DNA from: a virus
Lineage: Duplodnaviria > Caudoviricetes
Reading direction: 5' to 3' (one strand)
Length of the DNA: 64,000 bases
IMG/VR virus record: IMGVR_UViG_3300037067_027616
Span: 160,001 to 224,000 of that record
Each line of letters begins with the position of its first letter. Within the stretch, counting starts at the first letter, position 1. Below the pieces are notes generated by a model that worked only from the letters and a program-made list of their open reading frames with translations, did no database searches and had not been told where the DNA came from. This document shows, one piece after another, positions 18,729 to 56,996 of the stretch. The position numbers and the translations under genes are program-made.

Positions 18729-18804
18729 TGGCAGGGTGAGAGGGCATCGAACCCCCAGCCTCAGGTTTTGGAGACCTGCGCTCTGCCGATTGAGCTATCA
18801 CCCT
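18729..18804 (-). tRNA. tRNA-Trp(CCA)
   Basis: Loop CT-CCA-AA, CCA end. Confidence 0.93.
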
Positions 18805-20212
18805 AAAAGAGATATGAACTGATCGTAATTTTGTTTTGATCCGCCCACGCCCTCATAATTCGTTGCTCTTGAGGAGTAGGCGATCTGTTGCTCATACCAC
18901 GTGCTTGACAGATCTGCCCTTTGGTGAGTTCCATGGTGACCATCCTCCACGAGCCTTCCTTGTCAAACAACCTCAACGACCATATCGAGGATCTTCCCGA
19001 TGAGCAGGCCCATGTGTATGATGCCACGCAATGTTTCATGGCCCGGCCTTCATCGTACAGTTCCTTCGAGGTCAAAAGTTCCTTGATAATCCAAACCCTG
19101 CGGTTCTGCCCAGTTCCTTCCTCGAGCCGGAAGTCAGACACCACGCTGTGACTCCAAGAGGACGCACCTTTTTTAGCCTTTCCAAGTTCTTTGTGCCACC
19201 GTTCAACTTGATCCATCAAGGTATTGGCGTTCCGGCCGTTCATGCTGAAGTTTGGTTGTTCGGGATTTTGAGTAACGATGTTGCCTCGGTCGTCATATTC
19301 ATTGCGTATCTCATATTTAATGTGGCATATGTAATCGATGATCGGACCATATTGATTCGAGTCGAGCATGGGATTTGCAATGAGAAATTTTATAAACGAC
19401 TGCCGGAACTCATCATCAAACCGTTGCATGCGAGTGCCCCGCAAACGGGATGATATCCTCGTGTCCCCGCCGAGGGCAACGACCTGGCCATGTAAGAGGG
19501 CATCTATTACAGAGAAATACCCGGGGGCTTCAAGGAAATGGTGCGCCATCTTTTTCGTCAGCGGGAACGGAAGATTTCTCGCCGTCCGTATGTTGTTGCC
19601 GTTCCCTATGTGTATGTACCACTCTTGATGGAGTTGTTCATCAGCCTCCCAAACGCTGTCCATGAAGGTTGGTATGGGATACTTCGTGAAAAGGTGCCGT
19701 AACAACGATGATATCTGCCGTTGCAAGCTGTGGCTCTTCACCACCCACGTGGTGGGATCCTTTATCCAATACGGGGACCACCTCGCGATTTTTATGAGCA
19801 TCCTGATCGCTTGGGTGTCTTTAAGGATCTTTGACCGGTCATTACCTTTTCCAGACACGGAGTCGACAAGTTTGATTAAAGATCTTTTTGTGTCTTCGTC
19901 TAAAACAGACCTGTGATCAAACAGCGCGTTAGAAACAGAGGAAAATTCACACGATTTAGTTGGGTCTTGCAGGACCCTGTGAATGGCTTCCCGTTCGTTT
20001 CGAGGGGTGTGACTGCTTTTTTCCAAAGCTTTGATAGCCTTGTCTGCTTTGTATATCGAGGCCTCCCGTGCAATTTGCCAAGGGGTTTTATACCACGTGG
20101 CCTCAAACCCTGCTTCCTGGCACCACTCAAGGTACTTCGGCATCTCCAAACCGAAGCTACGAAGTATGACTTGTTCGGCGCTCTCCTTGTTGTACTTTTT
20201 CTGTACGGCCAT
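18803..20212 (-). CDS. PcfJ-like domain protein
   Basis: WH...L..EG..M.HCV.SY...C..G.SSIWSLR...T.E....Q.RG..N. Confidence 0.8.
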   Translation of the reverse strand: MAVQKKYNKESAEQVILRSFGLEMPKYLEWCQEAGFEATWYKTPWQIAREASIYKADKAIKALEKSSHTPRNEREAIHRVLQDPTKSCEFSSVSNALFDHRSVLDEDTKRSLIKLVDSVSGKGNDRSKILKDTQAIRMLIKIARWSPYWIKDPTTWVVKSHSLQRQISSLLRHLFTKYPIPTFMDSVWEADEQLHQEWYIHIGNGNNIRTARNLPFPLTKKMAHHFLEAPGYFSVIDALLHGQVVALGGDTRISSRLRGTRMQRFDDEFRQSFIKFLIANPMLDSNQYGPIIDYICHIKYEIRNEYDDRGNIVTQNPEQPNFSMNGRNANTLMDQVERWHKELGKAKKGASSWSHSVVSDFRLEEGTGQNRRVWIIKELLTSKELYDEGRAMKHCVASYTWACSSGRSSIWSLRLFDKEGSWRMVTMELTKGQICQARGMSNRSPTPQEQRIMRAWADQNKITISSYLF

Positions 20213-21873: not shown

Positions 21874-22020
21874 ACATTGATAATATACTATCAAAAACAT
21901 TGAAATGGACTGCGGTCTCCGGTTCGCCTATGGGAGCCACCTGTGCTTGATAACGGGAGAGGTGGGCGCCCACGTCACCGCCATTCCGGTTCACACGATA
22001 CCCGCAGTCCATTTTTGTTT

Positions 22021-22186: not shown

Positions 22187-22275
22187 TGGTGGGAGGTGAT
22201 GGAGTCGAACCACCCGAGCCCGTTAAAGGCAACAGCTCTACAGGCTGTCCCGCTACCCCTACGGTATAACCTCCC
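22187..22275 (-). tRNA. tRNA-Tyr(GTA)
   Basis: Loop CT-GTA-GA, long variable arm, CCA. Confidence 0.92.
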
Positions 22276-22286
22276 ATAAATAAAAA

Positions 22287-22492
22287 GGGGACACTCCCGT
22301 AATTGGACTTCTGTTCTATGGCCACATTTGACTGAGCCCGAGACCCGTCCATTGTAGCCCTGCTCACCGGCTAGGACTGTTTTCGGTTGCTACCGAGGAA
22401 GTGCGGGCGACCTTGCGATCTCCTTCCACGAGCAGTGTAGGTCCAATTTCCTCACCGGACTGACGTCCGGCGCGTGACCTCGGAGTGTCCCC
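22287..22492 (-). ncRNA. rnpB: Minimal RNase P RNA-like gene (~206 nt)
   Basis: P1 GGGGACACTCC/GGAGTGTCCCC; P2 GGTCAC/GTGGCC; GAGGAAATTGGAC and AGAACAGAAGTCCAATTAC form the P4 pseudoknot; GAGCAG. Confidence 0.8.
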
Positions 22493-22497
22493 GGGAT

Positions 22498-22583
22498 TGG
22501 TGCTCAAGGAGAGACTTGAACTCTCACGAAGTTTCCCTCGGTGGGTTTTGAGTCCACTGGGTCTGCCATTCCCCCACTTGAGC
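22498..22583 (-). tRNA. tRNA-Leu(CAA)
   Basis: Loop CT-CAA-AA, CCA. Confidence 0.92.
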
Positions 22584-22627
22584 ATGTTCATAATTTCACG
22601 AATGTTCACGTAAACGTGAACAAAAAT

Positions 22628-22711
22628 TGGTGCGGCTGACTGGATTTGAACCAGCAAGGCGTTTGCCATAACGTTCTTAGCGTTACGTGTATGCCATTCC
22701 ACCACAGCCGC
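22628..22711 (-). tRNA. tRNA-Leu(AAG)
   Basis: Loop CT-AAG-AA, Leu-type D arm and variable arm, CCA. Confidence 0.88.
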
Positions 22712-23835: not shown

Positions 23836-23864
23836 AATATACCACACAAAAATGGTTTTGTCAA
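23836..23864 (-). promoter_or_regulatory. Promoter of tRNA block 1
   Basis: TTGACA-17-TATATT with extended -10 TG. Confidence 0.88.
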
Positions 23865-35860: not shown

Positions 35861-35937
35861 TGGTGCGCCCGGTGGGATTTTAACCCACGACCATCGGTTT
35901 TAGAGACCGTCGGCTCTACACGCTGAGCTACGGGCGC
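35861..35937 (-). tRNA. Amber suppressor tRNA (CTA anticodon)
   Basis: GCGCCCG acceptor, GCTC/GAGC D stem, CGGT-CTCTAAA-ACCG, T loop TTAAAAT, CCA. Confidence 0.82.
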
Positions 35938-54734: not shown

Positions 54735-56996
54735 TCACACCTTACTTGAGTGATAGTCTGTAATCACTTGATATATAACATCTTCCACATATTCACGATC
54801 TGGAGAGTGGGGCAATTTTGATGCCTTGTACAACTCTCCGAGTTGCTTGTCCATATCGTGTGCGTATTGCTCCACTTTGTCGTAAGACCATGCGCCATCG
54901 CGTATGGACTTCAGTTCTTCAGCATCAATGTTCGTACGGTCGACGTTCACTTTTCCTGCTTCAAGTATCTCCGCTCCCATGCGGCAAAGTCTGACAAGAT
55001 GCATAGCGTGCTTGCTGTTACCGTGGAAAGCGACATGTCCATTCCTGCGGGTGACCAACACACCATTTGGTACGGAAAAGCACACTATATTCTGGCCAAC
55101 CACCGGTATTTTTCTTACTGCACAGCGCCTCATAATCCTGTGATGTTTTTGGGAATTTTTGTCGATGTGCACATGGAACATTTTTGCCTTTGGGTAATGC
55201 TCATTGTCGCTGTCGTACGGGCCATACAAGGATGTTTCCCAACCACAAGTAACCGCCAATTCTTGCACATCATCGGCAAGACTTTTCACGGAAGTGTAGT
55301 AAATCACCGACTTTTTGGACGTGTTCCTAATGGTACCATCCCCGAGTACCATAGCGTCAAAAAGAATTTCTTTTTCGTGCTTTGATAGTCCAAAAACCCA
55401 CCGCGGTATCTTTTTTGTTGTTTTCTCGCCACAATCGGAAAGAAACCTTTGCGCCAACTCTTTCCCGTACACAATGAGAACTATTTCTTGGATCGAAGTA
55501 GAGCGAAATAGGTTGGGACCGCGTTCATAAGAATAGAGTCCTGTAGGGGCTTCCGTGCTACCGTGAAATCTGGACATGTGCCAATGAAGCCTACCACCGG
55601 ACTTCTGGCTGATGCGTACGTTTTTGGGATTGCTTTTACATTTTCCCAGGCACCCATCAGACAAGTACCACCCCATCAACGACAAGTATTGCCTGCGCGT
55701 GAGTTTTACATCGGGAAAATTGTTGATTGTACCATATGTTTTTGTTGCTGGGTCAATGGTGGCTAGAACCTCAAAACATTCTGGTAAACAAGAAATTTCC
55801 TCAAGTACAAAATCTGAAGAGATTCTATTTTTTCTTGACACAGGCTTGAACAGCATTCGGTGATTTGGTGTCACCCGCACATCTATGTGGTTACCGGTGA
55901 GCTGGTACATAGATCCGGTGAAAGTCCCTTCAAATCTATCTACAAAATGTTGATATTCTAATTGACCTCTACGACCGGATTCTTTATACCGACCCGGTTT
56001 ACCTGTAAGGCGTTTTGACTGGAAAAGGTACTTTTTATGAAGTATCCCCCTCACTGTGGCAAGTCGATCTTCGATTGACACGTCCCTATATTTCTTCCAA
56101 CCAGAATCTGTCAAAAACTCGGTGTCGTCCGCATAACAATCAAACCCGAACTTTTCCTCCAAAGCTGCCCGTTTCTTGTTTCTTGATTTTGACCAATTTT
56201 GGTACTGTTCCCACTCCGTCTTTTTGTTGAGATAAACGACCTCTTTGCTGGCCATGTCGTAGTACTCTTCTTTGAGGTACTTCGTACCTAAAGCTTGAAA
56301 AGCATGTGCTTGTGCGGAAATTCCCATCTGGAGCCACTCCAAGGACAACTTGCGTTGATCCGGGTCGAGGAACCGTGCAAACAAAGGAATAACCCAATCA
56401 CCGTAGATTTGGTCGAGTTCAACCAAAAAGTCATGTCGGAGATCCTCCGGGATAGCCTCAATGGCCGCGTAGCACACGGCTTTGAGTTGAGAAGTCGGAA
56501 ACAAGGACTGCTCTGGAAGGCCCATTTCCGTCCGTGTAGGGAAGGATTTTGGGGGGTCAAGCAAAAACTTCCTGTGAACTTTTATCCTGTTAAGTTGTGC
56601 GATAGCGTACCCCGAGAATGTGTATCGGCATTTCTTTGATAGAAATTTTTCACGGGATAACAAAATTCTCTCCCACCACGGGCTTGTTTTCTTTATGCAC
56701 CTATCCGGCGCCCACAGTAAATCGAGCATGTTTGGGTTGTTTTCAAGTAGCAATGACGTAGCTTTGTGGATAGCATAGATTTTTCTGTCCACGCCCCCAA
56801 AGTCAGAGAACTCCTCAACATTTTTGAAACCCAAAAAATACTCTGGCCCAGGGATCATCACACCTGTCCTATCCTCATCAGATTCGGGTGTATTTGTACC
56901 GTAGGCCTGCGAACCCGTAACGGTTTCAAATATGGTGTGATTCAACGCGTATTGCTGTTCCATGTTTTTCCCTCCAGAGGAAATATACCATTTCAC
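54735..56996 (-). CDS. Pol-beta-superfamily (YcgL/RlaP-like) nucleotidyltransferase containing an intein
   Basis: GSQAYGT....SDED..GV, NPN.LD.L, GFD|intein|SKHAMHLVRL. Confidence 0.85.
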   Translation of the reverse strand: MKWYISSGGKNMEQQYALNHTIFETVTGSQAYGTNTPESDEDRTGVMIPGPEYFLGFKNVEEFSDFGGVDRKIYAIHKATSLLLENNPNMLDLLWAPDRCIKKTSPWWERILLSREKFLSKKCRYTFSGYAIAQLNRIKVHRKFLLDPPKSFPTRTEMGLPEQSLFPTSQLKAVCYAAIEAIPEDLRHDFLVELDQIYGDWVIPLFARFLDPDQRKLSLEWLQMGISAQAHAFQALGTKYLKEEYYDMASKEVVYLNKKTEWEQYQNWSKSRNKKRAALEEKFGFDCYADDTEFLTDSGWKKYRDVSIEDRLATVRGILHKKYLFQSKRLTGKPGRYKESGRRGQLEYQHFVDRFEGTFTGSMYQLTGNHIDVRVTPNHRMLFKPVSRKNRISSDFVLEEISCLPECFEVLATIDPATKTYGTINNFPDVKLTRRQYLSLMGWYLSDGCLGKCKSNPKNVRISQKSGGRLHWHMSRFHGSTEAPTGLYSYERGPNLFRSTSIQEIVLIVYGKELAQRFLSDCGEKTTKKIPRWVFGLSKHEKEILFDAMVLGDGTIRNTSKKSVIYYTSVKSLADDVQELAVTCGWETSLYGPYDSDNEHYPKAKMFHVHIDKNSQKHHRIMRRCAVRKIPVVGQNIVCFSVPNGVLVTRRNGHVAFHGNSKHAMHLVRLCRMGAEILEAGKVNVDRTNIDAEELKSIRDGAWSYDKVEQYAHDMDKQLGELYKASKLPHSPDREYVEDVIYQVITDYHSSKV
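55017..56138 (-). mobile_element. Intein with LAGLIDADG homing endonuclease (374 aa, residues 287-660)
   Basis: CYADDTEFLT..GW, VTPNHRML, GWYLSDG, AMVLGDG, VTRRNG...HGN followed by Ser. Confidence 0.92.

Follow-up and report, generated by a model that had tools for sequence, protein, structure and literature searches.

A putative minimal RNase P RNA lacking the bulged P4 uridine in the tRNA array of a huge phage

Introduction

The RNA of RNase P is a universal ribozyme, and the uridine bulging from its helix P4 is said to be conserved universally and to bind the catalytic metal ion (PMC4919922, PMC3488217). This nucleotide (U52 in T. maritima, U69 in E. coli) is not stacked within P4 and coordinates metal M1 through its O4 (PMC4919922, PMC3488217, PMC11143913). 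Activity falls about 13-fold with the exchange U52C; when the uridine is deleted, the loss is 13-fold in an archaeal holoenzyme and reaches about 80-fold in a cis ribozyme. Overall, deletion or mutation leaves some activity, at a cost of 13- to 100-fold, and the nucleotide has been judged 'strictly conserved ... not irreplaceable' (PMC3488217). Changes of U69 were more expensive in the E. coli holoenzyme acting on a minimal substrate, with a cost of >500-fold in kc and binding unaffected (PMC11221534). Isolated C-domains devoid of the S-domain, in turn, cleave pre-tRNA with the protein present or absent (PMC11143913).

What is to be made, then, of an RNA gene in the tRNA array of a huge phage, which carries the core motifs of RNase P RNA but has neither a specificity domain nor a bulge in P4? 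The gene is found in a stretch of 64,000 nucleotides, here called the window, which corresponds to bases 160001-224000 of a single IMG/VR virus record of 466,729 bp (98% complete according to CheckV). Here we ask what the RNA is, where it comes from, whether the missing bulge is genuine and what the RNA may do for the phage.

Identification of the RNA gene

The phage record has a GC percentage of 49% and contains 49 tRNA genes and one tmRNA gene. Altogether 47 of the tRNA genes reside in the window, all on the minus strand. The tmRNA gene (G000:C1:422973-423321(+), tag AEDYSYAMAEAA) lies outside the window, and two further tRNAs are found near 411.5 kb.

An earlier note on the window had pointed to a phage mini RNase P RNA of approximately 206 nt, in which P1, P2, P3, CR-I and CR-V were recognisable and the specificity domain was much reduced. 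Covariance models bear this out. The archaeal model RF00373 (RNaseP_arch) matches positions 22288-22491(-) end to end (model positions 1-288; cmscan, E-value mode) with 54.8 bits, a score that is significant but below the Rfam gathering score of 84; the E-value is 1.1e-14 locally and 2.4e-15 across the 466,729-bp record. All the elements named in the earlier note are present in this alignment, as is CR-IV. A default Rfam scan of the window returns only tRNAs and no RNase P RNA. The score remains below the cut-off because the specificity domain has shrunk to a stub of 36 nt, which replaces P7-P14, and about 40% of the model is absent. The bacterial model RF00010 gave no match at E <= 0.001 in this phage genome. 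Neither did the archaeal type T model RF02357, for which a control search likewise gave matches in 0/14 genomes.

The boundaries of the gene are set by P1. In a search for the longest terminal helix, this helix of 11 bp closes exactly the 206 nt at 22287-22492 on the minus strand, and the minimum free energy fold of the RNA has a z-score of -3.96 in comparison with shuffled sequences. All the helices of the catalytic domain (P1-P5 and P15-P17) and the long-range pairings P4 and P6 are present (Table 1). The S-domain block spans about 117 model positions (RF00373, window RNA) or 140 (RF00010, relative L184), against about 29-39 nt in the phage RNAs. P18 is absent from the window RNA, and P18-like hairpins occur in the relatives L123, L184, L192 and L121. 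We regard as spurious an open reading frame at 22364-22705(-), which would encode 113 aa and overlaps the RNA as well as two tRNAs.

Table 1. Features of the predicted mini RNase P RNA gene and its surroundings (window positions)
Feature	Position	Strand	Remarks
Whole mini RNase P RNA gene	22287-22492	-	RF00373, P1 boundaries, syntenic homologues
P1 5' strand, RNA positions 1-11	22482-22492	-	11 bp with 22287-22297; 7/11 pairs covary in alignment A2
P1 3' strand, RNA positions 196-206	22287-22297	-	Followed by U-rich 11-nt spacer to tRNA-Tyr
P2 5' strand	22474-22479	-	Partner 22320-22325; 6 bp, 100% paired, double changes at 3 pairs
P3 hairpin	22454-22471	-	7 bp, 5 pairs covary; longer in L124 and L192
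J3/4, GAGGA of CR-I	22449-22453	-	Invariant in 11 aligned members; agrees with Rfam consensus
P4 5' strand AAUUGGAC	22441-22448	-	1 nt shorter than in 21 relatives
P4 3' strand GUCCAAUU	22301-22308	-	8 contiguous pairs; covarying: 6/8 family-wide, 3 within bulge-less clade
P5 5' strand	22437-22440	-	Partner 22390-22393; 4 bp, 2 pairs covary
P6 pseudoknot 5' strand CUGCUC	22430-22435	-	Partner GAGCAG in P17 loop, 22360-22365
Specificity-domain stub	22394-22429	-	5-bp stem, internal loop, 4-bp hairpin with GCAA loop; replaces P7-P14; stem covaries
J5/15 CAA	22387-22389	-	Invariant GCAA takes in last P5 base; aligns to RF00010 GCAA in sister L184
P15-P16-P17 arm	22338-22386	-	All three helices paired and covarying
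L15 internal loop GGGUC, between P16 and P15	22342-22346	-	Invariant
CR-IV-like AGUCAAAUG into P2 3' strand	22325-22333	-	RF00373 alignment and family alignment
J2/4 with CR-V (AACAGAA)	22309-22319	-	Rfam consensus and family alignment
Upstream tRNA-Leu(CAA), encoded CCA	22498-22583	-	Ends 5 nt before P1
Downstream tRNA-Tyr(GUA)	22187-22275	-	Starts 11 nt after P1
Predicted sigma-70-type promoter	23836-23864	-	11/12 match, TG extension; predicted to drive the tRNA operon holding the RNA gene

Relatives and descent of the RNA

A neighbouring gene encodes a PcfJ-like protein, homologues of which (45-53% identical) are found on short metagenome contigs. Three of these contigs have the tRNA order Cys-His-Leu-Leu-Leu(CAA)-[RNA]-Tyr-Val-Thr, and the slot is occupied by an RNase P-like match of 26.4 bits in L121, 50.7 bits in L124 and 18.9 bits in L123. 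The P17 loop together with L15, common to these three RNAs and that of the window, served as the first search motif and brought in more members from IMG/VR and metagenomes, about 110 of its 120 metagenome matches being due to chance. The second motif (CR-I, the 5' strand of P6 and the stub stem), which is independent of the P17 loop, gave 15 further IMG/VR loci with 13 distinct sequences. The family comprises 24 distinct sequences, which have lengths of 206-342 nt and all come from contigs of huge phages or metagenomes; this number underestimates the true one, since the family was extended by patterns only.

The IMG/VR records carrying the L131 group of RNAs are fragments of 49-223 kb, 11-46% complete and with 10-16 tRNAs each, and their sizes and completeness suggest phages of about 450-490 kb. 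In this group the RNA is located outside the tRNA array. A conserved -10-like TATGAT precedes P1 (L131:5693-5704, as well as L134, L135 and L160) and a U-run follows, so that the RNA looks like a free-standing gene. In L131 it is adjoined by a class II aaRS gene.

Other searches added no members. With one genome taken per prokaryote species, the P17-loop/L15 pattern gave 49 matches, none of which is a family member: all are due to chance, and most lie in GC-rich genomes of actinobacteria. None of 50,697 GenBank phage records had a blastn match to the window RNA or to any of three relatives that were also used as queries. An exact 14-mer from CR-I/P4 hit 95 stretches of IMG/VR, all by chance except in the phage itself. 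A three-block scan (CR-I, CR-IV, CR-V) had 24 matches, with a complementary P4 in none, and a scan specific to the bulge-less form (12-nt spacing plus P17 loop) had two, both in coding DNA. No related loci were found via the CCA-adding enzyme. Within the searches made, the family thus seems to be confined to huge phages with tRNA arrays of their own.

The best Rfam match of the window RNA could be taken as a sign of archaeal origin. We reject this reading, since the P18-bearing sisters match bacterial type A. Members keeping two hairpins after P15, the P18-like region, match the bacterial class A model RF00010 with 64.9 bits in L160, 63.5 bits in L184 (E 2e-19) and 53.7 bits in L131, and the E-values of the P18-bearing sisters at 63.5-64.9 bits range from 1e-17 to 2e-19. 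The alignment of L184 to this model spans CR-I, P4, P5, GCAA, P15, the CCGGGU loop, CR-IV and CR-V. The archaeal model is itself devoid of P18 and for this reason is the one that matches members without P18 (the window RNA, L124 and L211). As the relatives that keep P18 match bacterial type A, the whole family is a derivative of it, and the gene in the window is one for a stripped-down bacterial type A RNase P RNA, encoded by a phage of approximately 467 kb.

Structure and conserved motifs

The structure, derived from the window RNA, was tested on seven sequences. Paired cells amount to 95.6%, in comparison with 84.5% in shuffles (0/500 reach the observed value), and both sides have changed at 34 of 77 pairs; sliding the 3' partners by 1-3 columns leaves only 4-8 such pairs. 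Pairing in P4 is complete (100%) across the seven sequences, and six of its eight pairs covary; covariation is also seen in P1, P2, P3, P5, P16 and the P18-like hairpins. Without any structure as input, RNAalifold again arrives at P1, P3, P4, P5, the stub stem and P15-P17. In the case of P6 the evidence is complementarity, as both strands are nearly invariant and do not covary: they are complementary in 7/7 sequences, except for the last pair in two.

No variation across 11 family members is seen in GAGGAA, GCAA, AG..A.AUG and AACA.AA, nor in GGGUC, a motif that belonged to the search pattern for some members. Indeed, the conservation of P6 and L15 is partly circular, both motifs having been used to fish out several members. 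At the same time, GAGGAA (CR-I), AG..A.AUG, AACAGAA and GCAA line up with the Rfam consensus.

The P4 helix without a bulged uridine

In 21 members of the family P4 consists of a 5' strand of 9 nt, A-N-N-U-C-N-N-N-N, facing a 3' strand of 8 nt, which gives 3 bp, the bulged U and 5 bp, the geometry of E. coli. In the window RNA, L124 and L123 the strands are 8 nt each, and the length from CR-I to P5 is shorter by one. The earlier note had described P4 as eight contiguous pairs with compensatory changes and the bulged U missing, and this description holds. The helix of the window RNA (AAUUGGAC/GUCCAAUU) has eight contiguous Watson-Crick pairs leading straight into P5, with a spare nucleotide on neither strand, and the same helix is formed in the two relatives with compensatory changes (AAUUAGGC/GCCUAAUU and AAUUAGGA/UCCUAAUU). 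The three helices differ at pairs 5, 7 and 8, each time through compensatory double changes. U48 (22445) occupies the place of the bulged U but pairs with A189.

Two other explanations of the helix were rejected. In the canonical register, with U48 bulged, three of the eight pairs would be mismatched; the contiguous register has no mismatch and is supported by covariation. A chance palindrome would not recur as the same bulge-less helix in two relatives with compensatory changes.

The change in P4 extends beyond the bulge. The C following it, present in 21/21 bulged members, is lost as well in the three bulge-less RNAs, and their four proximal pairs consist of A:U throughout, whereas the sisters have G:C there. 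Because the conserved C has changed too, the P4 metal site has been remodelled and not merely shortened by one deletion. CR-V varies elsewhere in the family: at L134:882-1152(-) and L135:7651-7954(+) the otherwise invariant ACAGAA is replaced by ACAAAA, with the bulged U kept, and a core position has thus undergone a second natural change.

In a maximum-likelihood tree of the 24 RNAs, the bulge-less RNAs of the window, L124 and L123 form one clade (support 100/99), with only three known members, and this clade is nested among the bulged L121, L184 and L192 (support 96/92). All six RNAs share the Leu(CAA)-Tyr slot. As the bulge-less clade is monophyletic and nested, one loss suffices. Together with the compensatory changes at three P4 pairs, the nesting argues that the loss of the bulge is derived and maintained by selection.

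The three bulge-less RNAs are 83-85% identical to one another. Of their 64 comparable pairs, 44 are invariant, 10 have changed in a compensatory way (three of these in P4), seven are changes of the G-U type and three are broken, the last only where MAFFT misaligns the longer P3 or a variable hairpin; among the unpaired columns, 13/75 vary. Such counts are what a functional RNA leaves behind, as opposed to a relic. A once-functional gene that lost its bulge and P18 and is now drifting would readily explain why a universally conserved active-site nucleotide, the S-domain and P18 (in the window RNA and L124) are gone and why the model score is below threshold. Such decay is very improbable, and already disfavoured by the three lineages themselves, which have diverged by about 15-17% and yet keep every helix, with 10 compensatory double changes, no genuine disruption and invariant unpaired core motifs. 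Furthermore, L123 is bulge-less yet has P18-like hairpins, which argues against a progressive collapse.

Genomic context

As proposed in the earlier note, the RNA is situated among tRNAs that need 5' processing, 5 nt after tRNA-Leu(CAA) and 11 nt before tRNA-Tyr. A scan for minus-strand terminator-like sites between the promoter (23864-23836) and the RNA found none, and the RNA gene is predicted to be co-transcribed with about 14 tRNAs from this one predicted promoter. Neighbouring tRNAs can be as little as 1-10 nt apart, so that an RNase P cut at a downstream tRNA would nearly set the 3' end of the RNA upstream of it, including that of the ribozyme. CCA is encoded by 42/47 of the phage tRNAs. 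Nearby genes encode a CCA-adding enzyme, an RlaP-like nucleotidyltransferase, NrdD and the PcfJ-like protein, and a Pfam search of the phage found no homologue of RnpA.

Several features of the array and of its neighbours may be recorded here. Between tRNA-Thr(CGU) and tRNA-Ala(GGC) there is an RNA-like element of ~120 nt (window 21890-22012(-)) with a perfect closing stem of 13 bp, a folding z-score of -2.45 and no Rfam match; at the syntenic place in L121 (4679-4772) ARAGORN reports a 'tRNA-???' with a 4-base anticodon. The element may be one of the 'permuted RNAs' of the earlier note. The tRNA at 35861-35937(-) of the window has the anticodon CUA ('Pyl' in ARAGORN) and is of the amber-suppressor type. 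In the ORF of the RlaP-like nucleotidyltransferase (window 54735-56996(-)), the C-terminal half contains a LAGLIDADG domain, possibly that of an intein or of an inserted homing endonuclease. TnpB/Cas12f-like and IS200-type Y1 transposase genes reside in the syntenic tRNA arrays of L121 (2688-3113 and 9699-10094) and L125 (4592-5989). The PcfJ-like protein (window 18803-20212(-)) has many homologues of ~40% identity on Mb-sized contigs, several of them named Candidatus Poribacteria, one Planctomycetes and one Solirubrobacterales, which is a weak hint at the host or at gene exchange. One contig with a PcfJ homologue (42% identity) also carries the type I-E Cascade genes Cse1, Cas7, Cas5 and Cas6e (L129:5837-10127).

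Possible function

We lean towards the view that the RNA is a still-active ribozyme without an S-domain, using the host RnpA and a contact between CCA and L15. The RNA would be freed from the polycistron by tRNA-end processing on both sides and would pair up with host RnpA, which we propose because the phage encodes none. It would then remove the 5' leaders of the closely packed phage pre-tRNAs. The main hold on these substrates would come from their genome-encoded 3' CCA, paired with L15, and not from the missing T-loop reader. With the bulged U gone, the backbone oxygens of P4 might bind metal M1 by themselves, or U48 might flip out to do so, for which the weak, all-A:U proximal half of P4 would be suited. 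The chemistry would probably be slower or have a different metal preference. Slower chemistry may be tolerable, as the RNA would be made in cis with its substrates and its local concentration is likely to be high.

Since mutants of the conserved U and isolated C-domains keep activity, it is plausible that an RNA with neither bulge nor S-domain still cleaves, only more slowly. The retention of all the other core motifs suggests continuing selection for cleavage or, at the least, for productive binding of substrates. As to the stronger statement, that a natural RNase P ribozyme cleaves pre-tRNA without the bulged P4 uridine, its neighbouring C and a specificity domain, we consider the chances to be evenly balanced.

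An active ribozyme could also work with a protein cofactor of the phage in place of host RnpA, the protein offsetting the missing S-domain and bulge. The phage has hundreds of unassigned ORFs, genes for RNA handling are close by (the CCA-adding enzyme and the RlaP-like nucleotidyltransferase, and the class II aaRS in the L131 group), and archaeal and eukaryal RNase P RNAs with weakened cores are known to lean on extra proteins (PMC4919922). Nevertheless, no candidate was found, no gene is consistently adjacent to the RNA across the family and none matches RnpA in Pfam. [quoted passage not shown] A phage-encoded cofactor is therefore improbable in our opinion.

More weight, although it is still an unlikely explanation, can be given to a decoy or timer. 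In this case the bulge-less RNA would still bind host RnpA and, by way of CCA and L15, pre-tRNA, and would draw off the protein or detain phage pre-tRNAs; its own cleavage would be very slow, and the effective cleavage would fall to the host RNase P. Mutations of U69 uncouple binding from catalysis, with a kc lower by >500-fold and unchanged binding kinetics (PMC11221534), so that a bulge-less RNA could bind its substrates yet hardly cleave them. The phage RNA has lost both the bulge and the adjacent conserved C while everything needed for binding is conserved, and with no RnpA of the phage that of the host must be shared. On the other hand, CR-I, CR-V and J5/15 are invariant in the clade, and a pure sponge for RnpA would not need them. 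Since the sisters among which the clade is nested look canonical and occupy the same locus, an unchanged job is the simpler reading, and deletion of the U costs only about 13-fold in the archaeal holoenzyme (PMC3488217). Taken by themselves, the published data on U mutants (13-fold to >500-fold loss, binding unaffected) would fit altered catalysis or a mimic binding RnpA alike.

Comparison with known RNase P RNAs

The closest known counterpart is the bacterial type A RNase P RNA (rnpB/M1; RF00010), to which the sister RNAs align end to end. Shared with it are the C-domain helices P1-P6 and P15-P16-P17, GCAA of J5/15, CR-I, CR-IV and CR-V, as well as the GGU loop, which in the bacterial RNA pairs with the 3' CCA of tRNA and may do so in the phage RNA. 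The bacterial RNA has 340-420 nt, whereas the phage RNA has about 206 nt: the stub of 36 nt replaces P7-P14, and with it CR-II, CR-III and the T-loop binding site, and P18 is gone. In addition, the phage RNA is encoded by a virus, inside a tRNA operon, and its P4 lacks the bulged U and the C that follows.

Similarly small is the minimal RNase P RNA of Pyrobaculum and other Thermoproteaceae (type T/P; RF02357), which, as summarised in PMC4919922 with reference to PMC3012483, also has about 200 nt, consisting of a catalytic domain with nearly no specificity domain. The Pyrobaculum RNA, however, is archaeal and cellular and works with archaeal proteins, whereas the phage RNA is of bacterial type A descent. 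The minimal RNA of the Thermoproteaceae keeps the bulged U.

Both peculiarities of the phage RNA have laboratory versions, namely the engineered ribozymes consisting of the C-domain only (PMC11143913) and the U69 and U52 mutants (PMC3488217, PMC11221534). These constructs are artificial and have a single defect each, whereas the phage RNA is natural, has both features together and is maintained by selection. In the full-text literature that was covered, which leaves most subscription journals outside, no phage-encoded or viral RNase P RNA was found, and RNase P is not mentioned in a 2021 comparative review of 224 jumbo phages. As far as searched, a virus-encoded RNase P RNA, a bacterial-type RNA without the S-domain and a naturally selected P4 without the bulge are each undescribed.

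Implications

If the RNA is indeed an active ribozyme, a nucleotide seen as a universal catalytic-metal ligand would not be needed in vivo, and the active site could be built by a regular helix or by a U transiently flipped from a stretch of A:U pairs only. The three bulge-less RNAs beside three close bulged sisters at the same locus offer a ready-made natural comparison, which addresses the role of the bulge in metal binding, rate and metal specificity and the changes that may compensate for its loss. The compact ribozyme of ~200 nt would also be a practical scaffold for structural work. For the phages themselves, the 5' maturation of tRNAs would join the translation-related functions that huge phages bring along, and a phage lineage would be running a minimal and altered ribozyme on its own set of 47 tRNAs.
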